From Candidatus Doudnabacteria bacterium (lineage in GTDB: Bacteria > Patescibacteriota > Doudnabacteria > UBA920 > O2-02-FULL-48-8): a stretch of 64,000 nucleotides of DNA. Under the pieces are notes generated by a model. That model searched no databases, had not been told where the DNA came from, and worked only from the letters and a program-made list of their open reading frames with translations. The translations under genes and the position numbers were made by a program. The stretch is taken from NCBI GenBank assembly GCA_037200925.1, contig JBBCGO010000001.1, positions 246,366-310,365 of the forward strand. The letters run 5' to 3'. Shown in pieces: positions 27,553-43,819 of the stretch (position 1 is the stretch's first letter; every line of letters begins with the position of its first letter).

Positions 27553-28637
27553 ACAAGCATTCTAATATGCTCTTTAATACTCTTTCCGATAACCGATCCA
27601 AGTCTAACTGGCACAGCATTTCCTATAAACTTAGCAATATTCTTACTTACGATGGATGTTTTCTTATCCACAAACATATAATCCATAGGAAAAGTTTGAA
27701 AGAGGGCGGCCTCTCGCAGACTTATTGCTCTATCTTGGTCCGGATGGCCAAACCGGCCATTTCCAAGACCAATACATTGCGTTGTCATTGTGGGAGCAGG
27801 TTGGTCCCATTTCATCCTACCATATACGGTACTACGATAAGTTTTTCCAGATTCACTCTTATGACACTTAAGTTGCAAATCCTCACTCCAACTTTTTGAA
27901 TTACCTCCGTTGACAGGGGTTGCTTTAATTCTTCGTAAATTAATATCATTTAATTTCCTTGCTCTATGCAATGGATCTTTATTGCTAATATCCCCATCTT
28001 TTAAAGGCTCCAGGTCCGCAATCACATCACGGACAGTGACACGGTTATTTATATGGGTTCTTTTTATTAAAGAAATATTCCCAAATTTAGAAGCTAAAAG
28101 CACAAGTCTTTTTCTCCTCTGCGGGACTCCAAATTCAGAAACATCCACAACCTCGTACTTGTAATTATAATTATTTTGCTTAAGTGTTTTTACAAACTTA
28201 GCAAAAACTGGATACTTTTTCATGTTAGCAAGGCTGCTAACATTTTCCATTGAGACTATATCAGGCTGAGTTTCAGCAATAAGCCTAGCAAATTTATCTA
28301 AAGGCTCAAGCTGTTTTTTAGTTATTTTGTTCAAGTTTAATTTTGAGAATGGCTGACATGGAGCGCATCCTGCAAGTACTCGTATGGTTTGATTTTTTGG
28401 CCCGAACAATTTATCAATCTGCTGAGGAGTTACATTAATAATGTCTTGATCAATAAACTTTGTTTTATTGTTGTATTCATAGCCGAACTTACAGCTACTA
28501 TCATTGTCTATGCCTGCAACAACATCAATGCCTTCTTTAATTAGTCCGTGCGTTAAACCACCAATACCACAGAATAAATCAATAACTTTTATTCTTTTTC
28601 TTTTATTTCTTTTCATAGTTTTATTATTTGCTTTCAA
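27549..28637 (-). CDS. dcm: DNA (cytosine-5)-methyltransferase
   Basis: 362 aa; motif I VIDLFCGIGGLTHG, motif IV PCQPFS, ENV motif; ATGA overlap with downstream ATPase start. Confidence 0.85.
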   Translation of the reverse strand: MKANNKTMKRNKRKRIKVIDLFCGIGGLTHGLIKEGIDVVAGIDNDSSCKFGYEYNNKTKFIDQDIINVTPQQIDKLFGPKNQTIRVLAGCAPCQPFSKLNLNKITKKQLEPLDKFARLIAETQPDIVSMENVSSLANMKKYPVFAKFVKTLKQNNYNYKYEVVDVSEFGVPQRRKRLVLLASKFGNISLIKRTHINNRVTVRDVIADLEPLKDGDISNKDPLHRARKLNDINLRRIKATPVNGGNSKSWSEDLQLKCHKSESGKTYRSTVYGRMKWDQPAPTMTTQCIGLGNGRFGHPDQDRAISLREAALFQTFPMDYMFVDKKTSIVSKNIAKFIGNAVPVRLGSVIGKSIKEHIRMLV

Positions 28638-28718
28638 CTATGGCTATTTCGCCTTCACTCAATCCATACAACTTATATACTTCCTGATCAATTTTACTAC
28701 AACAATCAAGCTGCAGTT

Positions 28719-29813
28719 TTATTTCCCAGATTTAGTTCTATTGTCATCTTTGCACAACATCCGACAATTTTCTGAAATTGTTCTTCCTCCTTCGTGCCAA
28801 GGTTTTATATGATCAGCTTCCATCTCGGAAATATCGAAATGTTTTTTGCAAACAGGGCAAATACCTTTTTGTTTCTCATAAGCTTCGCGCTTCATCTTTT
28901 CTGTAAACGCCCGAATTGAAAGGTATTTTTCTTGCCTCGTCAAAACATACGGATAAATACCAGACTTCTTGGTAACATCTTCGTCTTGCATTAACTCTTT
29001 AATTTCCGTTTCCAATTTAACAGAACTTAGTTTTTTATCTTTGAATTCATTATGCAGCTCGCCCCATTCCACATGAGCCATTTCGCGCCGATAATTTGGA
29101 AATGTCTTTTGCGCCCAGGAAATTACGTCCTGAAAATATTCCCACAACTTGTCAGCGCTTTTGTCTTTCTGATGTTTGCCCATGTAATCTTCAATTTTAT
29201 CATCACTGATCCAGCGGAGTGCCGTTTCCAGATACTCTTGGCGGTTCAATGCTCCACTCACATAGTCATGAGCCAGTAAATACGCCGGCGCGTTGCTCTT
29301 ACTGAAATAACGCTTGGCATCGGTTACCCAAGGCCCTGAATAAATAGCGTTCAACAATTCTTGAGGTGTAAGTTTCTCGCCAGCGGTATTGATGACCTTA
29401 AACCACGCCAGCTTTTCATCATCCGTACCTTCGCAAAAATATACCATGAGCGGATAGTCGCGGATATTCTTTTTCTCTTCTTCCGTCAAGTTATCGAAAT
29501 ACATCTGGTACCCGCGGTTCATAACGTTAAAATCCCCGGCCAAAAAGTTACAGATGCTTACAGTGCGCTGCTGGCCATCAAGGATTTCGAAACTACCACC
29601 ACTGTTTTTCACCCAGTACATCGCGTTTAGAGGAAACCCGCCCATCACCGAATTAATAACCGCGATCTGCTGTTCGGGTCTATAAATAAACTCGCGCTGG
29701 TATTTCGGGCGGATATTCAGACTGCCGCCATACCCAACGACACCCTCCTCTTCAATGTTTTTATACCCGTCAACTATTTTATGTATCGGAATTTGATGTA
29801 GTTCAATTTTCAT
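28719..29813 (-). CDS. DUF262 (ParB-like nuclease domain) plus C-terminal HNH endonuclease (GmrSD-like architecture)
   Basis: 364 aa; DGQQRT motif of DUF262; C-terminal CPVCKK...ADHIKPWHEGGRTISENCRMLCKDDN HNH motif. Confidence 0.7.
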   Translation of the reverse strand: MKIELHQIPIHKIVDGYKNIEEEGVVGYGGSLNIRPKYQREFIYRPEQQIAVINSVMGGFPLNAMYWVKNSGGSFEILDGQQRTVSICNFLAGDFNVMNRGYQMYFDNLTEEEKKNIRDYPLMVYFCEGTDDEKLAWFKVINTAGEKLTPQELLNAIYSGPWVTDAKRYFSKSNAPAYLLAHDYVSGALNRQEYLETALRWISDDKIEDYMGKHQKDKSADKLWEYFQDVISWAQKTFPNYRREMAHVEWGELHNEFKDKKLSSVKLETEIKELMQDEDVTKKSGIYPYVLTRQEKYLSIRAFTEKMKREAYEKQKGICPVCKKHFDISEMEADHIKPWHEGGRTISENCRMLCKDDNRTKSGK

Positions 29814-29846
29814 ATTGGTTAAGTTATTTTATGTTTCATAAACCTA

Positions 29847-30476
29847 TTAAATATTAAAATACCTACAGATAAACCGTTTTAATCTAAAAAAATTAAGACC
29901 TGTTAAAAGCCAAATAAATGGTACAACTTTAGAATTTTTTTCTTTTTCTAATTCTTTCCTGAGACTAAGATATGCTGTACGAGCTTGCCCATCATGCTCT
30001 CCGCCTATTAATTTATGGACTACAACAAGTAAATCTTCAGCTCTCTTTTTTATCTCTGGTTTTATATTGTCCCAAACCTCAGCGTTAGAAAGAAAATTAT
30101 GGTGTAATGCTACTCCTTGATTGAAATTACTTAGTGCCTGCTTAGCAGAAACTAGGGTTTTAATAAGCTCTGGATTAGTAAATAAACTACCGGCAGTAGC
30201 GATTGAATTGTCTATGGCCAAGCTTTCTATTTTAAAAACAATTTTTCTCAAAAGTTCTTTATCCTCCCTTATCTCTTGAGATCTGCTTTCCGGCCAATTC
30301 GTGCTAAGCCAATATTGAACTCCCTCGTCTAGTTCGGCTTGGATAGCATTTAATACACTACTTCTAGTATGCCAAATTCCTAGCCGATAAATAATCCAAG
30401 CAACTATAGCTGTGATAACAACTGATGACCCACTTGGATGCTCGCTAATTGTTGTAAATATTGAATTTATGTCCAT
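29847..30476 (-). CDS. Hypothetical protein with N-terminal TM segment
   Basis: 209 aa; SSVVITAIVAWIIY hydrophobic segment. Confidence 0.35.
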   Translation of the reverse strand: MDINSIFTTISEHPSGSSVVITAIVAWIIYRLGIWHTRSSVLNAIQAELDEGVQYWLSTNWPESRSQEIREDKELLRKIVFKIESLAIDNSIATAGSLFTNPELIKTLVSAKQALSNFNQGVALHHNFLSNAEVWDNIKPEIKKRAEDLLVVVHKLIGGEHDGQARTAYLSLRKELEKEKNSKVVPFIWLLTGLNFFRLKRFICRYFNI

Positions 30477-30518
30477 TGTTTTTCCTTCAACATTGGATTA
30501 AATTTATTTCCAAAAAAA

Positions 30519-31622
30519 TTATTTTTTCAAACGGATTAAAATACGAGGAAATGTATTTTTCAGTCCTGCTGAAGTTTTTAAGACCGGACCAGCATTTAAG
30601 TCACTATAATTTTTTGCATCGATAATTGTATAAACCTTGCTCTTTAAAGCAGGGTCACCAGCTCCTCTTTTAGCCATACCAATAATTTCGAACTGTTCAG
30701 GATTGTACTTATCAAGGAACGTAATCGGAACACCCATGACACTATTGTAATCTTGTGGAATATCTAATTTTTTCGAAACTTCAATAGCATCGTAGTTCTC
30801 GTATTTAGGATATTCTTCGGGATTGTATGTTTTGTAAAAAGTCATTTTCTCATGACGCTTTGTGGTATCAAGGTTTGTAAACCATAAAATACGACCAAAG
30901 CTAAAATACTTTATACCATTCACAACTTTCTTTCTGGATTCTGTATCTATGTCGTATTCTTTGGGGACTTGAAACCATTTTGTCCCGCCATTGTCATAGC
31001 CAAGCCACAATTTATTTTCTTTGATGAGTTTAAAAATTTCTTTATAGGTTATGGCATTCTGGTCCCCTAGAATCAAAAACTTTTTTTTGTGTTCAACAAG
31101 CTGTGCCACGTAGTCACGAAAAAGAGAAAACGGCGGATTGGTGACCACTATATCTGCTTGGTTGAGAAGTTCTATACATTCCTCACTGCGAAAGTCTCCG
31201 CCGTCTTTGAGGGAGGTTGAAACATTTGCATCGTGCCGGAGCAACCATTCGACATCAGAGAGGCCAATAGCGCCATCAGAATTGGAATCTGGAACTTCAT
31301 TAATTTCAATTTTAAACGGCTCTTTGCCTTTCGGTTTTAGGCCTTTGACTTCAAGGAGTGGTAACTGTCCTCCCGCAATTGGCGACTTTGTATAACTGGT
31401 GGTGATTAACTTTTTGAGACCGAGAGCATTAAAATTAGCAGCGAAATATTTAAAAAAATTACTCTCGAACGGATCATCGCAATTGCAATAAATAATCTTA
31501 TCCCGAAACTGTTCTTTGTAATGTTTTAGTTCTTTTTCAATATCAACAAGCTGAGTATAAAACTCGTCTTTCTTAGCTGCGCTTGCTTTGTGTAAGTTGC
31601 TATTTAATGATTTATTTGACAT
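30519..31622 (-). CDS. DNA methyltransferase, N6-adenine/N4-cytosine class (NPPF motif)
   Basis: 367 aa; DIVVTNPPF catalytic motif IV; AT-rich. Confidence 0.6.
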   Translation of the reverse strand: MSNKSLNSNLHKASAAKKDEFYTQLVDIEKELKHYKEQFRDKIIYCNCDDPFESNFFKYFAANFNALGLKKLITTSYTKSPIAGGQLPLLEVKGLKPKGKEPFKIEINEVPDSNSDGAIGLSDVEWLLRHDANVSTSLKDGGDFRSEECIELLNQADIVVTNPPFSLFRDYVAQLVEHKKKFLILGDQNAITYKEIFKLIKENKLWLGYDNGGTKWFQVPKEYDIDTESRKKVVNGIKYFSFGRILWFTNLDTTKRHEKMTFYKTYNPEEYPKYENYDAIEVSKKLDIPQDYNSVMGVPITFLDKYNPEQFEIIGMAKRGAGDPALKSKVYTIIDAKNYSDLNAGPVLKTSAGLKNTFPRILIRLKK

Positions 31623-33308: not shown

Positions 33309-34553
33309 CTAATTTTGAATTCCGCCGTCATCATAACTGCCAAGCTCGCTGTCGGAAAGCTTGACGATCTTGCCCAGGGACAAACCTAACCGGTTAAACA
33401 CGGCCATGGAAGGAATGCCCATTTTAGCGTCGCCTGCAACCAAGTAAACCGTAGCTGCGCTTCCTTTGATCAAAGTCCCGTCCGGGTAGCCCATGATCCG
33501 TCCGACGCTGACAGCCGCGAACTGGTCAGACGAAATAGTCTGGACATCCGAGAACTTTAACCCGCGGGCAGTGAAGATAGTCGCAGTGCTGAACGGTCTT
33601 AGCATCCCGTTGACTACCAGATAAACAGTACCGCTGCCGGCCACTTTCACCACTGAACCGTTTGCGTAGTTGAACATCACACTTGGCGGCGTAGGAGCCG
33701 GGGTCGGTGTCGGAGTCTGATAAACAGGGGTCGGATACATGATATTCGGGGTCGGGTACGGGGTTGGGTATTGTACAGGCGCACCGGGACTTGGCGAAAC
33801 AACTGTGTTTGAATCCAGCGTCACTGCGGTCTGGGCAAGTGCCCGGCCATTGAGAGTTGCGCCGGTGTTGAGCACAATTGCTGATTGATCCAATATATTT
33901 CCGTTGAAAACAGATGTCGTGCCAAGCGTGGTTTGGCCGCCGACAGCCCAAAAAATATTACCGGCCTGGGCCCCGCCGCTTAAAATAACATGTGTTCCGG
34001 AACTCGTGGTGAGAGTTTGCGCTATCTGGAAGATCCAGACATCCGAAGCAGATCCTGCGAGTGTGACATCCGACGGTATGGTCACGCCTGTGCCCCATTT
34101 ATACAATCCCGGAGCAAGCGTCATGCCGCCAATGTTTCCGGCGCCCAATTCCGTGGCAGTGGGCAGTGTCCGGCCCACGGCATCAACATATGCGGTTTGC
34201 ATGTCCATTATCGCAGTGGTCATGTTCGCCGGTGTGGGGTCTGCGTAGCCTGGCGCGTATGCTTTTCCGCTTACCAATGCTGAGGTGGAAAATGCGCCTC
34301 CGGCAGGAAGAGTTAAGGCAAAGCCTGTCAGGGAGCTCGCCGCAGCCGGGCTTACTCCAATGTCCCCGACAATACTCGTGGTTCCAGTGGTAGAGATCCC
34401 TGTTTTTGCCAGGATGGCAAAATTACCCGCAGTTCCGAGGTTGACCATTGCCGGCCCTGCGGCCAAAGCAGTTGCCGAGAAAGCCAACGCCAGACCCGCG
34501 ATAAGACCCACAAACATATTTCTTCTCAAGATATTCCTAAAATTTATTTTCAT
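33309..34553 (-). CDS. Ice-binding-like (DUF3494) secreted protein with Pro/Thr linker and shared C-terminal module
   Basis: LGTAGNFAILAKTGISTTGTTSIVGDIGVSPAAASSLTGF matches DUF3494 N-terminal signature; PTPYPTPNIMYPTPVYQTPTPTPAPTPP linker; C-terminal IPSMAVFNRLGLSL...YDDGG; start moved to ATG 34553 preceding the signal peptide. Confidence 0.7.
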   Translation of the reverse strand: MKINFRNILRRNMFVGLIAGLALAFSATALAAGPAMVNLGTAGNFAILAKTGISTTGTTSIVGDIGVSPAAASSLTGFALTLPAGGAFSTSALVSGKAYAPGYADPTPANMTTAIMDMQTAYVDAVGRTLPTATELGAGNIGGMTLAPGLYKWGTGVTIPSDVTLAGSASDVWIFQIAQTLTTSSGTHVILSGGAQAGNIFWAVGGQTTLGTTSVFNGNILDQSAIVLNTGATLNGRALAQTAVTLDSNTVVSPSPGAPVQYPTPYPTPNIMYPTPVYQTPTPTPAPTPPSVMFNYANGSVVKVAGSGTVYLVVNGMLRPFSTATIFTARGLKFSDVQTISSDQFAAVSVGRIMGYPDGTLIKGSAATVYLVAGDAKMGIPSMAVFNRLGLSLGKIVKLSDSELGSYDDGGIQN

Positions 34554-34847
34554 TTGTTTCTGATTAATTTTTTCTATTATAGATTTAATTATAAAACAGG
34601 TTGAACGTTTAGTCAAGGAAAGTTTTTATGCTACCTTTTGTGCAGACGAAAAGGTAGCACCAAAAGCTGCCGGCGGCTCTCGGCAGCACAGAGGTAGTGA
34701 ATTTAGAGAAAAATTTGCCAGAATTCTTAGCTCGCTTCGGCGTGTTCGCAAGGCCTAATCGGCGTTGCGAACGCTAACCCAGCCTCGCTCGCGTCAAATT
34801 CTGACCAGATTTTTCAAATTGCCGGAAAAACCGAAACCTAACTCGGC

Positions 34848-37386: not shown

Positions 37387-38277
37387 TTATTTCGTGAACA
37401 CGATGTCCCAGTAGCCGGTCGTATTTTCCGATTGGCCGGTGAAGTCATACGAGTTGGCATGCTTCAGCATCCGGGGTTTCAGGTTCCATAATTTGGCCAA
37501 AGCGATGGCGGTTTTGATCGAAGCCGGCGAATCCATATGGCGCAGGGTCAGTCCCCCGCCATCCATATTTTTTATCATATTGCCGGAATCCGCATCTAGC
37601 TGGTTGGCCACGTCGGTTGCTTGGTAATGCGAAAAGTCTACGCTGATCACGACTGTGATCTCATCTTTATATTTAGCCAGAACTTGCGCAACTTTTTCCA
37701 CTTCGGAATCGGGAGCAGCCGAGGAATAAATGATGGGCACAATGGTGCTGTCAGGATACAGCAGTTTGATGAACATGCTGTGCACGCCGATGGAGTGCTC
37801 GCCGTCAAAGCATCCGTCTATTTCCGAAACTCCGCCGTTCTTTATCAGATCATCAATGATGGCTGTGTTGCTGTCCAGAATTCCGTAAGGAGTATAGTAT
37901 GGGCGCTTGGTCGTGGACGCGGCCTTTTTACAGTGTTCATAATGATCGGGACCGACCACCACAAAGGTCTGGTGCGGGCTCTGCGATTGCTTGAGAGTAT
38001 TATACAGCTGTGCGATCAGAGAAACTGCGGTCGGCAAATGATGGGAAGTGATAGAGATCTGAGCGTTCGGAAGATTCGCCAAAGCTTTATACTGGGCCAT
38101 GGCCTGCTTGATCAGATCGCCGTATTCAAATCCCACTGCAGCCACGGGAGAAGAGCCTATGGGCGCAGTGGTAATACCTGCGATTTTCCCGCTTTGCCTG
38201 GTTGCGGCAAAAAAGCCGAGGCTCAGAAGCAGGACGCCCAGAATAAAGACTATGCCTGTCCGGGTGCTATTTGACAT
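37387..38277 (-). CDS. MEMO1-family protein (AmmeMemoRadiSam system protein B-like)
   Basis: 296 aa; GPDHYEH, EHSIGVH and VISVDFSHY resembling the MEMO histidine-rich metal site; N-terminal TM/signal. Confidence 0.55.
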   Translation of the reverse strand: MSNSTRTGIVFILGVLLLSLGFFAATRQSGKIAGITTAPIGSSPVAAVGFEYGDLIKQAMAQYKALANLPNAQISITSHHLPTAVSLIAQLYNTLKQSQSPHQTFVVVGPDHYEHCKKAASTTKRPYYTPYGILDSNTAIIDDLIKNGGVSEIDGCFDGEHSIGVHSMFIKLLYPDSTIVPIIYSSAAPDSEVEKVAQVLAKYKDEITVVISVDFSHYQATDVANQLDADSGNMIKNMDGGGLTLRHMDSPASIKTAIALAKLWNLKPRMLKHANSYDFTGQSENTTGYWDIVFTK

Positions 38278-41200
38278 TGATCTTGACCGTGTCGGAGAAG
38301 TTCACATCATCAGGATTGAGAGCTGACTGGATCTGTGCCGGGCTGGCCGTAAAGTCGCCTTTGTTCACTGCTCTCGCATAGTACTGGACTGCCGGCTCGC
38401 ATTGCGAAAAAGTACTGAAGTTCTTCGGGACGGTAAAGTAGAGTTTATTATCCACCACTTTATCCGGGTACCACAGGCAGTTGTAGCCCTGGTCAATTCC
38501 CAGAGTGTACGGGTCAGTCACGGGCTTTAGGCCGCTCGGCAGATAATCCACGATCTGATAATCGCCGTTTAGGGCTTTGGCCCCGACCTTGGGGAAAAGT
38601 TTGACTTTCACAATGTCGGAATCGTTAAAGCTGGTGGTGGCCTTGCCGTTGACCACGTATTGGCGGGTCAGGGATAGGTTGGCATCGCGGGCCACGGTAG
38701 CCGAATTCAGGCTTTGTTCAAAGAAACTTGAGACTTGCATATCGCCGGAAATATTGCTGAAGTTCAGACTCTTAAGTTCATCTTCAGAAAGCGTAACGCT
38801 GTAGGTATCGCCGTTCTGCAGACTCACATCCTCTGACCTGGCATTGGTCTGGTAATGCAGTTTGGCGGCGCTCTGGCTCGTTTGCGCGATCGCAGACTTG
38901 ATGAACATTACTCTTTGTAAAATATCCAGATCCTTGGCCGGCGGATGACCCTGCATATAATTCCACAGTAAGTCTGCATCATCGGTCAGGTTCAGGTCTG
39001 AGGCCAGAACCGCGGCCGTGTCACTCAGCTTGATCTGCGCATCATTCTCGCCAAGTTCGGCAAACCAGGCCTGTGAGCCGTCAACGTGCAGGTGCGGGTG
39101 AATATCTTTCTGATACAGATTTCTTGCTTCTTCCAGATCTCCAAGCTTGACTAAGCCTAACGCTACATAGACCTTATCCTGCCAGGTCAAGTCTGCAACT
39201 GTCTGGATGTCCTGCAATCTCGATAAGACCGGTTTGCCAAGGCTGGCCAGGCCATACAGCGCTAGGGCCTGCCTGTGCAGGTCAGTTTTCGTGTCATGCA
39301 AAGCTGCGGTAAAATAATCACCCACGCTGTTCTGCGACACATAGCCTCCGGCCAGGTCCGAAACATACGCGCTCAGTTCCAGGTCCGGATCGCTGTAAGG
39401 AAGAAGCCTGATGCCTCCCGCATCCGAAGAAACATATGCGCTTAAGTCCAGTTTATCTTGCGGCTGCGCTTTGAAATAATTACTCAGGATATCCGCGGCA
39501 AAATAGCTTCCCACAACCTGGTCCACGCGCAGGCCTCCGGAATAACTGCTATAGAGCAGGTCCTGATAGAATTTTCCTTTACCCGCATCCATGAACTCAA
39601 GCTTCGTGAACCCGCCCGGGTTTCCGGCCAGGCTTTGGTTGCCGGATACGACTTTTACTGTGCTGACCGAAGGCTTGGTATAGTAGCTGTTGGAAACGGT
39701 GATGTGTTTTTTCAAAGCATCTGACAGGGCTCCTTGTTTTCCTGAAATGACCAGATCAAATTCGCCTTGAGGCAGATTGCCGAGGGTGATGGTGGCCTGA
39801 TGGTTTTTCAGGGTCACGGTCTGGTTGAATTTCAAGCCGTCGCTGGCGATGCTGACCTGCGCATCCTGGTCCGTATGGTATCCGGTGCCGTACAATCCGA
39901 TCTTGACCTGCGGGTTGTCGCCGGTAAGATAAGAGTCGGACAGGACCGCGTTGACGAACAGGGGCAGGGTTGAAGGGACGAGTTTTGTGTTCTCGCCGGC
40001 TTTGAGAGTGTTGGTGTCAAACGACCTGGCCGTCACTCTCCAGGAAGTGATATTGTCCGCGGTGGTAAAATCCATTTTGGCATTGCCGGAAGCATCCGTC
40101 TGCAAGGTCTGGAATGCTGCGGTGTCAATAAAATTAGACCTTACCGAAGTGCCGCCTTTTTCCGCATTGTGCACGTAGATCCCGTCCGCAAAATAAGTAT
40201 GGTATTTGCCGACAATGATATTATAAACAGTGGTGTGCGGCGCGTTCCGATGCGCAATGGACCTGATGATCTGGGTTCGTCCGTCAGTTAAGACCAGCGT
40301 ATCGCCGACCTTGGCATTGCCCGCAAGATCCCAGTCGCCATTGAGGAATATCTTATGCTCTTCGGTCACCTGCAAATTGTTGTTGATGATCAGGAAATCA
40401 TCAACCTCGTGGCTGGATATGCCCTGCACGATCGCGGGCACCAGTGTGCGGCTGGACGGATCTTTAAAGGTCAGCAGCTCGTCGCCAATCTTGATATTTT
40501 CAATTCCTATGGTATGCCCGCTGGCGAGCAGGATCTGCGTGCCCGCAGTAAAGCAGCCGCCTTTTTCCGCGCCGCCTCCGGCCGCATATTTCGGCAGCAA
40601 ATAATCCGTGGAGCCGGTAAGAGGATAGGTGTAGATGGTTTGGTACAGGCTGTCCAGGATCTGCTGCTGCGAAGTATAGGGCAGGACATGGAACACGGCT
40701 TCATCCACTATCGCCACATTGGTCTGGGCGGCCAGGGGCTTTCCGTCCTTGTCCGTGATGTGGAATGAAAGCGCAACCTTGTCCCCCGGCCGGTAGCTGA
40801 CCTTGTCCGAAGAAATGTTGATCTTGATGTTATTGTCGCTGGCCTTGAACAGCGCAAACACTGAATTGCTTTCTTCAAACCCGTACGGGCCCAAGACCAC
40901 GGCCATGTACTGGACCGAAGGCGCAAAGTCATTGCCGAAGTTCTCGGTAAAGGTCGGGCTCTTGGCCACCACGGCTTTGGAAATGCTGTTCTGGAACCGG
41001 TAGTAGAGGATGGGCTGATCGGCGATATTCGTAGTCCCTGATCCCTGCACGGTCAGGTTCACCGGGTCATTGAAAGAAAATTCTTTCTGGTAGGTTTCGT
41101 TGTTGATGTTCAAGGAAAGGCCGGACGGGTTCCAGACATCATAGTTAGCATAAAAAGCGTAAGTCTGGGCCGTAGCAATGCGTCCCTGCGCATCGGTGAC

Positions 41201-43819
41201 GCTGAAGGTGATGGTGTAATAAGTATTGTCGGCTTTGGGCAGATTTTTGGCAAAGCTCCATTCGCCGTTGCTGTCCGTGGTGCCGCTGACCGGGTCCAGA
41301 TCCAGATCGCTGCGGACATAGTCGTAAGTCTTATTTACGGTTTTATTGATCGGATCATAATAATTTCCGGTCTCCACCTGGTTATAAGTAGTTTTGGTGA
41401 TCTTGGCGCTGATGGGATAATTGGCCACAGGTCCGGCAATATATTCGGTCCGAAATCCTCCGTTGTCGTCCGGCACCTGGTTATTGATGTCAATGTTGTT
41501 GACCTTGGCTTTGAAAGTATAATTGTCGCCGGACTGCTTGGCCTGGTCAGCCTGCAGATACATGTGCGGGCCGAAGACCAGCACATCCCCGGTGCCGGAG
41601 ATCTGCCCTTCTTCCGCGGTAGCCGGGGTAAAATTCAAACTCAAATCGCGCGGATAATAAGAATCCACGTCAGCGACATAATCGGGAGTTTGTGTTACGG
41701 TGGCCTGCCCATTATTATCCAGCGTCACCTGGCCGGTAATGTCGCCGTTCCAATATGCATTGTAATTAAGCGTGATGTTGTTCAGCGGAGTGCCGTCAAA
41801 GAATGCGCCCTTGACCGTGAACGTCACCGGATCTCCGGCAAAGATCGCAGGCTTATCCGTGGTCACTGTCAACTGGTAAGAGGGTTTGGTGTAGGTCAGA
41901 ACTTCAATGCTGCTCTGGCTTACGGTTTCATTGCCGAATAAGACCACCAGATTGTAAGTTTTCGGGTCCAGGCCCTGAAATGACAGGCTGCCTTCGATCG
42001 TATTGAAAGGCGTGACCATAACATCGGTGGAGACGACCGGCTGCTGCTGGCTGAAATCAGCATTGTAATCATAGAATCTGGAATTGTCGTAGAGCGCAAC
42101 TGTGACCTTCTTCTGCCGGACATCTTCTTTGCGGGATTTCACCACGCCCCAGAACCTGACCGTGTCGGTCATCTGGTATGTGTAGCGGTCCGTGGACATG
42201 AATTTCCAATAATTGTCCCCGGAATTTACGCCGCTGCCGGTGTACCCCCACCTATCCTGGATCTTTACGAACGTAACATTTTTATCCGCGTCGGTAACTT
42301 TGAAGAACGAAGGATTGGGATTGAGGCTGGTGTTTTCCGCTTTCAGCGGGTCCGGCGTGTTGAACTGCAATAGGCCGTCCGCATTACTTACGCCCAAATT
42401 CTGGCTGCTGCTGCCGGACTGCACGAAATCCACGCTCGCGTTTTTCAAAGCGGTCTTGGAGCTAAAATCATCCAGCCAGAGCAGGCCTGTGTCATGCGTC
42501 ACGGAAAAATAATGGGCAGCGCCGGTGACCTGCAGCCAGACTTGCTTGTGCTGGCCGGCCAGAGTCACGTCCACCACATACAGACCTTTGTTTAAGACTT
42601 GCGGAATTTCTATATAACTTTGGTAGTCCTGGACCACCACGTCCGGTTTGAATGTCAGCACCGGCTGTTTTCCTTTGGTGTCATAGCTTACCGGATTGTT
42701 CTGGCGGTAGTAATTCGTCCAGCCCCAGCTCCAGGTCCGGCTGTTCTGGTAACTGGTTAGGAATTCATCAGGGCTGCTGATGCTGTAAACACTGACAGAC
42801 AGATCATTGCTATTAACATTGTTGCTGTATGCGCTCAAATCGGTTTTAATGCCTGCCGGAGCTTCCACAAAGTCATTGGAAAAACTAAAATAGCTGCTGG
42901 GTTGGGTATAATTGCTCAGCGTTTCAAAAGCGAACTGATAATCATCAGACAAACTATCGGTACTTCCTTGCGTCTTCAGGCCTTTTTTGATAGTGACCGT
43001 ATAGACCGTATTCTCGGCCAGAGGATTTTTCGGCAAAAACACTGCCGTGTCATCATAAACCTCGAACCGTCCGTCAACTTTGGGTGCAATGGTAAAATAT
43101 TGGTCCATGTTCTGGATGTTCGTGCGGTTAAAGGTCATTTCTATCCCGGTGTTGGTCGGCACATAAGTCGTCTTATTTCCGGGAAGGGTTTTGAGCACCT
43201 GGAAACCGGCTTTGACCTGAAAAGCCCAGCCGTATTGCCGGTCAGCGTAGATCTTATCGTTGATCAGGCTCTGGTAGACGATGCCCGCTTTCAGATCTTC
43301 CGTGGGCTGCAGCTGGTAGCTATATGAACCCGCGCTATCGGCAGCCAAGGCGCTTTTTATAATAGGATTGCCAAGGCCCACCTGTTTGACCGAGAAATTT
43401 ACAGGAGGGTTGAATTTTAGAATTTTTTGGACCTGGCTGCCTGATAAGGCCTGCGAGCTTTGCAGTGTGAAAGCTGTGTGCGGATTGACCCCGGCCGCGT
43501 CCTGCATGGTCGCTTTCAGTACAAATTGCGCAGGAAGAGGATGGCCGGAAAACAATTTCCATCCGATGAATATTAAAAGCAAGACCAGAACTATGGCTGC
43601 TGCCGCATAGACCGGTTTGCGGAAAAATTTTTTAGTTTTGCCGGTTGAACTTAAACCTTCGGCTTCAACATGATTTGGCTGCATAGAACTAAAAGCCTGG
43701 TCTATATCCGCTGGCTGCCAACCCTCGTTCATGAGATTTTGCCTGATCGCATCATCGCTTAAGCCGGCGCTTCTGGATTGTTTGATATATTCTGATGCAT
43801 GCGCATGCTCAATTGCCAT
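38267..43819 (-). CDS. Giant membrane-anchored surface protein (1850 aa) containing a mini-Hint/bacterial intein-like domain
   Basis: short cytoplasmic N-terminus, single TM (AAAAIVLVLLLIFIGW), N/T/S/Y-rich extracellular region; Hint module CFTAGTQILLASG...YVHN. Confidence 0.75.
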   Translation of the reverse strand: MAIEHAHASEYIKQSRSAGLSDDAIRQNLMNEGWQPADIDQAFSSMQPNHVEAEGLSSTGKTKKFFRKPVYAAAAIVLVLLLIFIGWKLFSGHPLPAQFVLKATMQDAAGVNPHTAFTLQSSQALSGSQVQKILKFNPPVNFSVKQVGLGNPIIKSALAADSAGSYSYQLQPTEDLKAGIVYQSLINDKIYADRQYGWAFQVKAGFQVLKTLPGNKTTYVPTNTGIEMTFNRTNIQNMDQYFTIAPKVDGRFEVYDDTAVFLPKNPLAENTVYTVTIKKGLKTQGSTDSLSDDYQFAFETLSNYTQPSSYFSFSNDFVEAPAGIKTDLSAYSNNVNSNDLSVSVYSISSPDEFLTSYQNSRTWSWGWTNYYRQNNPVSYDTKGKQPVLTFKPDVVVQDYQSYIEIPQVLNKGLYVVDVTLAGQHKQVWLQVTGAAHYFSVTHDTGLLWLDDFSSKTALKNASVDFVQSGSSSQNLGVSNADGLLQFNTPDPLKAENTSLNPNPSFFKVTDADKNVTFVKIQDRWGYTGSGVNSGDNYWKFMSTDRYTYQMTDTVRFWGVVKSRKEDVRQKKVTVALYDNSRFYDYNADFSQQQPVVSTDVMVTPFNTIEGSLSFQGLDPKTYNLVVLFGNETVSQSSIEVLTYTKPSYQLTVTTDKPAIFAGDPVTFTVKGAFFDGTPLNNITLNYNAYWNGDITGQVTLDNNGQATVTQTPDYVADVDSYYPRDLSLNFTPATAEEGQISGTGDVLVFGPHMYLQADQAKQSGDNYTFKAKVNNIDINNQVPDDNGGFRTEYIAGPVANYPISAKITKTTYNQVETGNYYDPINKTVNKTYDYVRSDLDLDPVSGTTDSNGEWSFAKNLPKADNTYYTITFSVTDAQGRIATAQTYAFYANYDVWNPSGLSLNINNETYQKEFSFNDPVNLTVQGSGTTNIADQPILYYRFQNSISKAVVAKSPTFTENFGNDFAPSVQYMAVVLGPYGFEESNSVFALFKASDNNIKINISSDKVSYRPGDKVALSFHITDKDGKPLAAQTNVAIVDEAVFHVLPYTSQQQILDSLYQTIYTYPLTGSTDYLLPKYAAGGGAEKGGCFTAGTQILLASGHTIGIENIKIGDELLTFKDPSSRTLVPAIVQGISSHEVDDFLIINNNLQVTEEHKIFLNGDWDLAGNAKVGDTLVLTDGRTQIIRSIAHRNAPHTTVYNIIVGKYHTYFADGIYVHNAEKGGTSVRSNFIDTAAFQTLQTDASGNAKMDFTTADNITSWRVTARSFDTNTLKAGENTKLVPSTLPLFVNAVLSDSYLTGDNPQVKIGLYGTGYHTDQDAQVSIASDGLKFNQTVTLKNHQATITLGNLPQGEFDLVISGKQGALSDALKKHITVSNSYYTKPSVSTVKVVSGNQSLAGNPGGFTKLEFMDAGKGKFYQDLLYSSYSGGLRVDQVVGSYFAADILSNYFKAQPQDKLDLSAYVSSDAGGIRLLPYSDPDLELSAYVSDLAGGYVSQNSVGDYFTAALHDTKTDLHRQALALYGLASLGKPVLSRLQDIQTVADLTWQDKVYVALGLVKLGDLEEARNLYQKDIHPHLHVDGSQAWFAELGENDAQIKLSDTAAVLASDLNLTDDADLLWNYMQGHPPAKDLDILQRVMFIKSAIAQTSQSAAKLHYQTNARSEDVSLQNGDTYSVTLSEDELKSLNFSNISGDMQVSSFFEQSLNSATVARDANLSLTRQYVVNGKATTSFNDSDIVKVKLFPKVGAKALNGDYQIVDYLPSGLKPVTDPYTLGIDQGYNCLWYPDKVVDNKLYFTVPKNFSTFSQCEPAVQYYARAVNKGDFTASPAQIQSALNPDDVNFSDTVKINVK
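40166..40555 (-). other. Hint/BIL (bacterial intein-like) module, 130 aa, flanked by perfect 15-bp direct repeats GCCGCCTTTTTCCGC (40151..40165 and 40556..40570)
   Basis: GG|CFTAGTQ N-terminal block A, C-terminal HN followed by Ala (AEKGG); AEKGG encoded on both flanks. Confidence 0.7.

Follow-up and report, generated by a model that had tools for sequence, protein, structure and literature searches.

A bacterial intein-like Hint domain in a macroglobulin-like surface protein of Candidatus Doudnabacteria

The window analysed here is a stretch of 64,000 nucleotides from a Candidatus Doudnabacteria bacterium (assembly GCA_037200925.1, contig JBBCGO010000001.1, positions 246,366 to 310,365); coordinates below are positions within it. 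The subject of this paper is a small Hint domain of the bacterial intein-like (BIL) type, which lies inside an 1850-residue protein resembling alpha-2-macroglobulin (A2M) encoded on the minus strand. The domain is bordered by two identical 15-nt direct repeats. An earlier reading of the sequence alone (hereafter the original prediction) had described the domain and proposed that the repeats make it mobile or switchable at the DNA level.

Results

Identity of the Hint domain

The host gene, the domain with its catalytic residues, and the two repeat copies are located as follows.

38267..43819, minus strand: host gene, coding for a membrane-anchored alpha-2-macroglobulin-like protein with Hint, 1850 aa (open reading frame list, translation, Pfam and Foldseek)
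40166..40555, minus strand: mini-Hint (BIL-type), 130 aa, 390 nt, residues 1089-1218 (PT-HINT, 2LWY and 6TMM matches)
40553..40555, minus strand: codon of the catalytic Cys1, residue 1089, 100% conserved
40355..40366, minus strand: block B T-E-E-H, residues 1152-1155, with the TxxH motif; T64 and H67 of the domain 100% conserved
40166..40171, minus strand: C-terminal His-Asn, residues 1217-1218, site of Asn cyclisation; H129 and N130 of the domain 100% conserved (also matched by TIGR01443)
40556..40570, minus strand: upstream repeat copy, AEKGG, residues 1084-1088, the N-extein junction motif ending in Gly-Gly
40151..40165, minus strand: downstream repeat copy, AEKGG, residues 1219-1223, the C-extein junction motif, with Ala at +1 and Lys1221 at +3

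The minus-strand translation of residues 1084-1223 reads AEKGG/CFTAGTQILL...YFADGIYVHN/AEKGG, where slashes mark the domain boundaries; GGG precedes the upstream AEKGG and TSVR follows the downstream one. The mini-Hint of the original prediction, with its GG-CF start and HN-A end, is thus present in the 1850-residue protein. Among Pfam families, the domain scored best against PT-HINT (PF07591), at 49.8 bits with an E value of 5e-13 and a cut-off of 27.7. Matches to Vint (29.4 against a cut-off of 27), Hom_end_hint, Hint_2 and Intein_splicing were weaker. The intein N- and C-terminal models also matched weakly, the NCBIfam C-terminal model TIGR01443 (intein_Cterm) at 17.6 against a cut-off of 15.6.

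The closest sequence in the Protein Data Bank (PDB) was the BIL domain of Clostridium thermocellum (2LWY; E value 2.8e-7), which aligned over its full length with residues 2-130. Residues 900-1330 were modelled with AlphaFold2, and the model was compared with the PDB by Foldseek. The top match was BIL2 of the Tetrahymena BUBL1 locus (6TMM), with an E value of 1e-9 and a TMt of 0.73. The predicted local distance difference test score (pLDDT) of the Hint was mostly 80-90 per 10-residue block and decreased to 65-69 across the last 20 or so residues.

The domain shows the marks of the Hint superfamily: a match to a curated profile, the Hint fold in the model, and an N-terminal Cys together with the block B Thr-x-x-His. 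In inteins, the TxxH of block B assists the N-S acyl shift (PMC4031507). The residue after the terminal His-Asn is Ala1219. The C-terminal His-Asn and the lack of a nucleophile at +1 are among the features by which type A BIL domains are defined (PMC4031507), and BIL domains as nearest relatives and a surface or secreted host point to the same class. The match to PT-HINT is above its gathering score, and no toxin domain follows the Hint; the C-extein matches A2M and bMG10 only.

In an alignment of 112 Hint-positive sequences, C1, F2, I18, T64, H67, G84, D85, N112, H129 and N130 were invariant. The two outcomes on which the original prediction was to be judged, a significant match to Hint profiles and conservation of Cys1 and the His-Asn pair, were therefore both obtained, and its assignment of the domain to the bacterial intein-like kind agrees with 2LWY and 6TMM as the closest solved relatives. 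An inactive, structural Hint was rejected on the grounds that the catalytic residues are 100% conserved. The domain is very probably an active autoprocessing module.

The host protein

The host protein carries the following further features.

43559..43612, minus strand: N-terminal transmembrane helix, residues 70-87, VYAAAAIVLVLLLIFIGW, with KKFFRK before it (read from the sequence)
40688..41089, minus strand: A2M bait-region domain, Pfam A2M_BRD, residues 911-1044 (27.5 bits against a cut-off of 22.7)
40571..40687, minus strand: low-confidence linker N-terminal to the Hint, residues 1045-1083, part of the bait-region-equivalent segment (AlphaFold2 pLDDT)
39884..40120, minus strand: A2M family domain, PF00207, residues 1234-1312, including PDNITSWR (26.3 bits against a cut-off of 21)
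39368..39406, minus strand: putative position of the A2M CxEQ thioester, which reads LLPYSDPDLELSA and has no Cys (family consensus alignment)

Big_5, A2M_BRD and A2M were found above the Pfam cut-offs, and bMG10 slightly under its own. When the model of residues 900-1330 was searched with Foldseek, the top matches other than BIL2 were complement C3/C4/C5, A2M, CD109 and Escherichia coli ECAM. A phmmer search of the C-terminal 632 residues against PDB sequences gave no useful match, so that the A2M assignment is based on Pfam and on the Foldseek matches of the model. According to the positive-inside rule, which we take to apply to this protein, the remaining ~1760 residues after the helix are predicted to be on the extracytoplasmic side. 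The order of a transmembrane helix followed by macroglobulin (MG), Big_5 and A2M domains likewise suggests a surface or extracellular location. The giant surface protein named as the host in the original prediction can thus be described more closely, as a membrane-anchored macroglobulin-like protein.

The Hint is located between the A2M_BRD and A2M domains, directly N-terminal to a conserved motif, xRxxFxDtAxF, at the opening of the A2M domain; in the alignments, the Pfam A2M domain starts just past this motif. This is presumably the position of the bait region of A2M-family proteins, judging from the domain positions of human A2M. The pLDDT was below 50 in the linkers on both sides of the Hint and, on the N-terminal side, at residues 1044-1052 and 1064-1087 (model residues 145-153 and 165-188). 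The linker N-terminal to the Hint is probably disordered in view of this model, and the bait region of A2M proteins is known to be disordered (PMC4498604).

The whole protein has only three Cys residues, at 1089 (Cys1 of the Hint), 1781 and 1807. The latter two are in the C-terminal MG10-like domain, inside the conserved motifs DGCYQ and SFCV, and no Cys is found between residues 1089 and 1781. The segment that seems to be equivalent in position to the CxEQ thioester site reads PYSDPDLELSA in the window protein and GGIxLLPYSDxDLELSA in the family consensus. Since the Cys residues are confined to these three positions and the putative site reads PYSDPDLELSA, the host is considered to have no CxEQ thioester. 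No Pfam thioester-containing domain (TED) model matched the host protein, and the positional equivalence of that segment is therefore putative. The protein therefore has the MG, BRD and A2M domains of the alpha-2-macroglobulin family without its internal thioester.

Distribution and conservation

A genome scan with one genome per species gave 283 relatives, of which the best 80 were examined; the query contained the Hint and so favoured Hint-positive loci. All 80 carried a Hint of 128-131 residues at the same site, and the complete reading frames were ~1770-1940 residues long. The 80 metagenome-assembled genomes (MAGs) are labelled mostly as Patescibacteria, including Doudna-, Portnoy-, Uhr-, Peregrini-, Gracili-, Magasanik-, Dojka- and Saccharibacteria, among others. 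A second scan, of metagenomes, used a profile of the host only, and 80 loci were examined. Here the Hint was found in 36 loci, including the 14 most similar, and was lacking in 44. Altogether the same-site Hint was present in 115 other loci from the two scans, the named ones being mostly Patescibacteria. The closest relative comes from a Candidatus Doudnabacteria MAG. The Hint is kept in the nearest genome (L006), with 67% amino acid identity over the 220-residue junction region, as it is in the 14 closest metagenome loci.

When the Hint alone was used in a HMMER scan, 9122 representatives were found at E <= 1e-3, and about 100 of the top 150 were proteins of 1700-1900 residues with one Hint near residues 1000-1250. 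Word-indexed protein searches with a 431-residue region and with a 79-sequence C-side profile gave 5 and 3 matches, respectively, the candidate list being saturated. Because these were few, the sampling of the family was taken from the DNA scans and HMMER. The exact 1850-residue protein is on record in two assemblies only, GCA_037975565.1 and the Logan assembly of run SRR28211699.

The mean p-distance was 0.54 for the Hint and 0.64 for the adjacent host region, which means that the Hint is the more conserved of the two. The distances of Hint and host correlate with r = 0.69, and none of 500 Mantel permutations reached as high a value. The GC content of the module (0.515) is within that of the host gene (0.50-0.54), showing no compositional anomaly. 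No homing endonuclease, transposase or integrase was found within or beside the module, and no mobility gene nearby. Judged on these comparisons, the pattern is that of an old, selected and mostly vertically inherited domain, unlike a recent or decaying mobile insert. A recent foreign insertion was rejected in view of the composition and of the co-divergence with the host.

Several MAGs with the gene (among L014, L031, L034, L042, L043, L047, L049, L057, L064, L066, L067, L074, L077 and L023) have titles of "uncultured Gammaproteobacteria", and one of this set is titled "Candidatus Nanoarchaeia archaeon". Such titles probably reflect mislabelling or contamination of bins rather than true occurrences beyond Patescibacteria.

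Two loci have irregular reading frames. In L004 (1-143; Logan contig SRR22388287_1423081), an unrelated sequence replaces the Hint frame upstream of ...LVPAIVQG, at the contig start; this may be an assembly chimera or a broken gene. In L003 (3542-8657; 2.33x coverage), the homologue is split into a Big_5 fragment, a Hint and A2M fragment (P0001) and a bMG10 fragment. The splits are most likely sequencing frameshifts, not a true pseudogene.

Junction residues

In the 116 Hint-positive loci, including the window, the N-extein ends with AE[K/G/R/M]GG, 112 loci having Gly at -1 and 108 having it at -2. At the start of the C-extein is D/E/Q-KGG or (A/E/Q)-EKGG. The +1 residue is Asp in 43, Glu in 32, Ala in 19, Gln in 16, Ser in 3, Asn in 2 and Lys in 1; that is, Asp, Glu, Ala or Gln in 110 of 116, and never Cys or Thr. 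The statement of the original prediction that Ala at +1 is incompatible with canonical class-1 splicing is upheld. All 116 have a Lys within +1 to +3, without Arg in its place.

A large class of proteins outside the window carries Hints of the same clade arranged head to tail (for example P0048, P0049, P0053, P0059, P0061, P0065, P0074, P0087, P0089, P0098 and P0099). In 22 such multi-Hint proteins unrelated to the host, 2-12 tandem Hints are present, with 58 units in total. Lys is within +1 to +3 in 49 of the 58 units, against a background of 5.7% Lys; at +1 itself, 43 units have Lys and 4 have Arg. Neighbouring Hints are joined by very short linkers, typically of the form HN-KG-C, HN-KGG-C or HN-KGGG-C. 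In some of these proteins (P0049, P0054 and P0059) the N-terminus is type-IV-pilin-like; others combine a signal peptide and a transmembrane helix with three to five Hints and a Gly-rich tail. If active, the multi-Hint proteins would cut themselves into Hint-sized pieces.

The 15-nt direct repeat

Only two copies of the repeat unit, GCCGCCTTTTTCCGC, are present in the 64-kb window (40151-40165 and 40556-40570), even with one mismatch allowed, whereas none is expected by chance (100 shuffles). The identity extends over exactly 15 nt and the start-to-start spacing is 405 nt, so that the reading frame would be kept after a deletion from one copy to the other. In these respects the original prediction, which described a 390-bp module between identical 15-mers coding for AEKGG, is accurate. 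Around the module, a search for longer, imperfect or inverted repeats gave only the 15-mer and short matches at chance level.

AEKGG is found on both sides of the Hint in eight lineages, including that of the window. In the other seven, the two coding segments share 11-13 of 15 nt and differ at synonymous sites, in line with the ~12 of 15 matches expected from independent codon choice. Identity of 15/15 was found in none of the 115 other Hint-positive loci, the maximum in register being 13/15. Given two AEKGG peptides, the chance of identical codons is about 0.008-0.017 with the codon usage of this genome. For a single lineage such identity is mildly unusual, and with eight lineages it is unremarkable; furthermore, the finding was selected for it. 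The upstream copy of the repeat seems to be a motif of the host and the downstream copy one associated with the Hint; the two coincide in both peptide and codons here, and the repeat is regarded as a by-product.

In one other locus (L016), an out-of-register match of 14/15 nt, coding for GGGGA, was observed at a distance of 9 nt from the Hint junctions on either side, in a run of Gly codons. This indicates that Gly-rich flanks can yield near-perfect short repeats in other lineages.

Homologues lacking the Hint

The Hint-less homologues have a single, collinear AE[K/R/G/Q/M]GG motif followed by (G/D/E)GG-x-R. The third position of this motif varies in the same way as in the N-terminal flank of the Hint-positive proteins. 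CxEQ is also missing in these homologues, which are mostly high-GC; a few have source names such as Actinomycetota. In neighbour-joining (NJ) trees of the host C-side region (175 sequences), 5-10 changes in the Hint state were obtained by parsimony in all 100 bootstraps; the host family is deeply diverged (~30-45% identity) and NJ is crude, which limits the inference of gains and losses. One Hint-positive protein (P0027) has 52% identity to a Hint-less protein and 47% to its nearest Hint-positive one. The comparison indicates several precise gains or losses at one site over evolutionary time. The Hint may plausibly have been lost by deletion between its quasi-repeated flanks.

Neighbouring genes

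The gene downstream of the host gene is as follows.

37387..38277, minus strand: Memo-family (PF01875) gene, overlapping the 3' end of the macroglobulin-like gene by 11 nt

This neighbour is kept in Hint-positive loci and in a Hint-less locus (L003 8659-9549, L004 2537-3265 and L005 2039-2950), which suggests that the macroglobulin-like and Memo-family genes form a conserved two-gene unit. Elsewhere in the window, a cluster of the restriction-modification or defence type is present on the minus strand at ~28270-31620 (L001 22198-25553), with an EcoRI-type methylase, a protein with GmrSD_N and HNH, and a DNA cytosine methylase. Close to it are a protein with an Ice_binding domain (33309-34616) and small DUF7718 and DUF5647 reading frames.

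Discussion

Interpretation

The segment is best explained as a catalytically intact mini-Hint of the type A BIL kind, which would be a fixed and mostly vertically inherited part of a macroglobulin-like family of Patescibacteria. We put the probability of this reading at roughly 0.75. A domain that is more conserved than its host, with intact catalytic residues and a Gly-Gly/Lys signature at its junctions, bears the signature of a domesticated, functional autoprocessing step.

Several points weigh against this interpretation. The distribution of the Hint is patchy: 44 of the 80 matches to the host-only profile lack it, and its state changed 5-10 times, so that it appears to be dispensable in some homologues and its inheritance not purely vertical. 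Arg replaces Lys after His-Asn in 4 of the 58 multi-Hint units, which fits an electrostatic role of this residue better than a nucleophilic one. Furthermore, even when the peptides are given, the 15/15 identity of the repeat has a chance of only ~1-2%, and a part of it is left unaccounted for by an explanation at the protein level. Local gene conversion or a recent duplication may be behind it.

Proposed mechanism

We infer the chemistry and products as follows. The Hint would work at the level of the protein rather than that of the DNA. Once the protein has been exported and folded, Cys1089 would undergo an N-to-S acyl shift at the Gly1088-Cys1089 bond, assisted by the Thr and His of block B, to form a thioester. 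Cyclisation of Asn1218 would cut the chain between His-Asn and Ala1219, by which Ala1219 would be freed and the Hint would leave. With no nucleophile at +1, a branched ester of the intein type would not be formed, and the Hint would excise itself by one of two routes.

In one route, the outcome would be a two-chain protein, the halves of which might still be associated as in other proteins of the A2M/C3 family. In the other, an amine would attack the Gly-Gly thioester and re-ligate the two halves. The amine might be supplied by Ala1219 through its newly freed alpha-amino group, which is the route of type A BILs (PMC4031507), or by the invariant Lys1221 through its epsilon-amino group, in the manner of Tetrahymena BIL2 (PMC8616854). 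Type A BILs proceed through thioester formation, Asn cyclisation and splicing by aminolysis, with cleavage products dominating (PMC4031507); cleavage is dominant in BILs generally (PMC7664689). BIL2 forms an isopeptide bond to the epsilon-amine of Lys, and its N-extein can be conjugated to other proteins (PMC8616854). Provided that the domain is active, cleavage into two chains would be the likeliest outcome, followed by Lys-directed ligation and then by splicing through the alpha-amine.

Alternative explanations

The mobility or ON/OFF variation suggested in the original prediction corresponds to a recent or excisable Hint cassette, with the 15-bp repeat as a target duplication and recombination or slippage between the copies as a population-level switch. 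The perfect, in-frame repeat, unique in the window, is what such a unit would leave, the chance of identical codons is only ~0.01-0.02, and the Hint-less homologues show exactly the collinear, single-motif sequence expected from such a deletion, with at least 5 presence/absence changes in all NJ bootstraps. Against this, none of the 115 other Hint-positive loci has a DNA repeat of this kind (at most 13/15 in register), and where the peptides are identical their codons differ synonymously. The Hint is ancient, diverges together with the host under stronger constraint, has a normal GC content, has no homing endonuclease, transposase or integrase within or next to it, and is retained in L006 and the 14 closest metagenomic relatives. 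In addition, 15 bp is very short for frequent recombination across 405 bp. The cassette is therefore quite improbable, and the DNA-level proposal gives way to a repeat of two junction peptides; what stands of it is precise gain or loss at this site over evolutionary time, as indicated by the single-motif homologues and the 5-10 changes, and not as a switch.

Two further alternatives accept that the domain acts on the protein. A selfish mini-intein, removed cleanly by class-1 splicing to leave an ordinary host protein, would account for Cys1, the block B TxxH, the terminal His-Asn and the weak matches to models of intein N- and C-termini. The +1 residue, however, is Ala here and Asp, Glu, Ala or Gln in 110 of the 116 loci, with Ser in only 3 and neither Cys nor Thr in any, and the branched intermediate of class-1 inteins is impossible with Ala at +1. 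The domain has 130 residues and no endonuclease domain, is located in the disordered linker of a surface protein and not at a conserved active site of a housekeeping protein, and has BIL domains as its nearest solved relatives. This explanation was rejected on the +1 residue, and is the most improbable of all. Somewhat better placed, yet still unlikely, is a module for covalent capture, in which the Hint in the bait region would serve as a chemical warhead: an extracellular Gly-Gly thioester would be passed to the invariant Lys at +2/+3, or to a lysine of a foreign protein such as a protease, in place of the CxEQ thioester. The Gly-Gly of the N-extein (108-112 of 116), the Lys within +1 to +3 in all 116 loci and never replaced there by Arg, and the lack of a thioester-capable Cys in the host agree with it. 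So does the chemistry of the best structural match, BIL2, with its Lys-epsilon isopeptide bonds and conjugation of the N-extein to other proteins, and the thioesters of A2Ms normally trap lysines of proteases (PMC4498604). On the other hand, the Hint-less homologues are also without CxEQ, so that the Hint is not correlated with loss of the thioester; Arg follows His-Asn in some multi-Hint relatives; the confidence of the modelled flanks is too low for judging the geometry; and it is a proposal that we infer purely from such likenesses. The autoprocessing Hint of the type A BIL kind, fixed in its host family, is thus preferred to each of these.

Significance

BIL domains are usually viewed as sporadic inserts of unclear benefit. 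Here, one is found at the same site of one surface-protein family in many lineages of the superphylum. What seems to be new is a domesticated BIL-type Hint that is fixed in the bait region of a macroglobulin-like family without the thioester. The bait region is the switch point of macroglobulin and complement-type proteins, and the Hint occupies it in a family without the classical thioester. This position offers a hypothesis for how episymbiotic bacteria of the candidate phyla radiation (CPR) mature or arm a major surface protein. If the warhead proposal were true, the product would be a two-chain macroglobulin stapled by an isopeptide bond, or an ATP-independent, ubiquitin-like covalent capture replacing CxEQ. 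It would then be a bacterial, extracellular counterpart of the chemistry of Tetrahymena BIL2 in an A2M scaffold, conserved across Patescibacteria. The family is also a natural source of small Hint domains independent of a +1 nucleophile, which might serve protein ligation. For sequence scans, it should be kept in mind that two conserved junction peptides can by themselves give rise to a short, perfect direct repeat on either side of a protein module.

Comparison with known systems

In the literature that was searched, no paper connects Hint or BIL domains to macroglobulins or to CPR bacteria. The conserved neighbour of the window protein is of the Memo family, whereas bacterial A2Ms are associated with PBP1C. 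The architecture of MG, BRD and A2M domains, the membrane anchoring and the disordered bait region before A2M are shared with ECAM/YfhM, Salmonella A2M and the thioester-less YfaS/MagD type (PMC4498604). The window protein differs from these bacterial A2Ms in having no CxEQ, in its N-terminal transmembrane anchor instead of a lipobox, and in the Hint in its bait region. Membrane proteins of similar size with A2M domains occur in the CPR bacterium Vampirococcus and have been proposed as a defence against host proteases; the passage describing them mentions no Hint (PMC8080830).

The model also matches the structures of complement C3/C4/C5. In those proteins, cutting is carried out by a furin-type host protease and not by a built-in domain. 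Their linker is processed at a topologically equivalent site, and the chains stay associated. A two-chain maturation of the window protein analogous to that of C3/C4/C5 may be envisaged, although the analogy is inferential.

Pretoxin Hint domains share the best Pfam family (PF07591) with the window Hint. The window protein, however, has no toxin domain, and its C-extein is made up of the A2M domain, a presumed TED-like region and a weak MG10-like match. The Hog domain of Hedgehog proteins starts with the motif G-CF, and the Gly/Cys-Phe junction of the window Hint resembles it. The N-S acyl shift proposed for the window Hint is also known from Hog, the thioester of which is resolved by an external nucleophile (PMC7664689). 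In contrast to the window Hint, which is internal, Hog domains are C-terminal and have no terminal His-Asn cleavage.

BIL2 of the Tetrahymena thermophila BUBL1 polyubiquitin-like locus (6TMM/6Y75) is the best structural match, although the sequence similarity is weak (E value ~0.2). Its N-extein is assumed, from its ubiquitin-like nature, to end in Gly-Gly, as that of the window Hint does. BIL2 is eukaryotic and intracellular with ubiquitin-like exteins, whereas the exteins of the window Hint are macroglobulin domains (BRD and A2M) of a predicted extracellular bacterial protein.

The type A BIL domain of C. thermocellum (2LWY) is the closest in kind: both are mini-Hints of ~130-140 residues with Cys1, the block B His, a terminal His-Asn, no +1 nucleophile, and a secreted or surface host. 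In the literature consulted, BILs are described as optional inserts, for example in MafB toxins. The Hint of the window family, on the other hand, is found at one fixed site of one host family in the CPR lineages sampled; it diverges together with this host, and it is bounded by Gly-Gly at -2/-1 and by an invariant Lys at +1 to +3.

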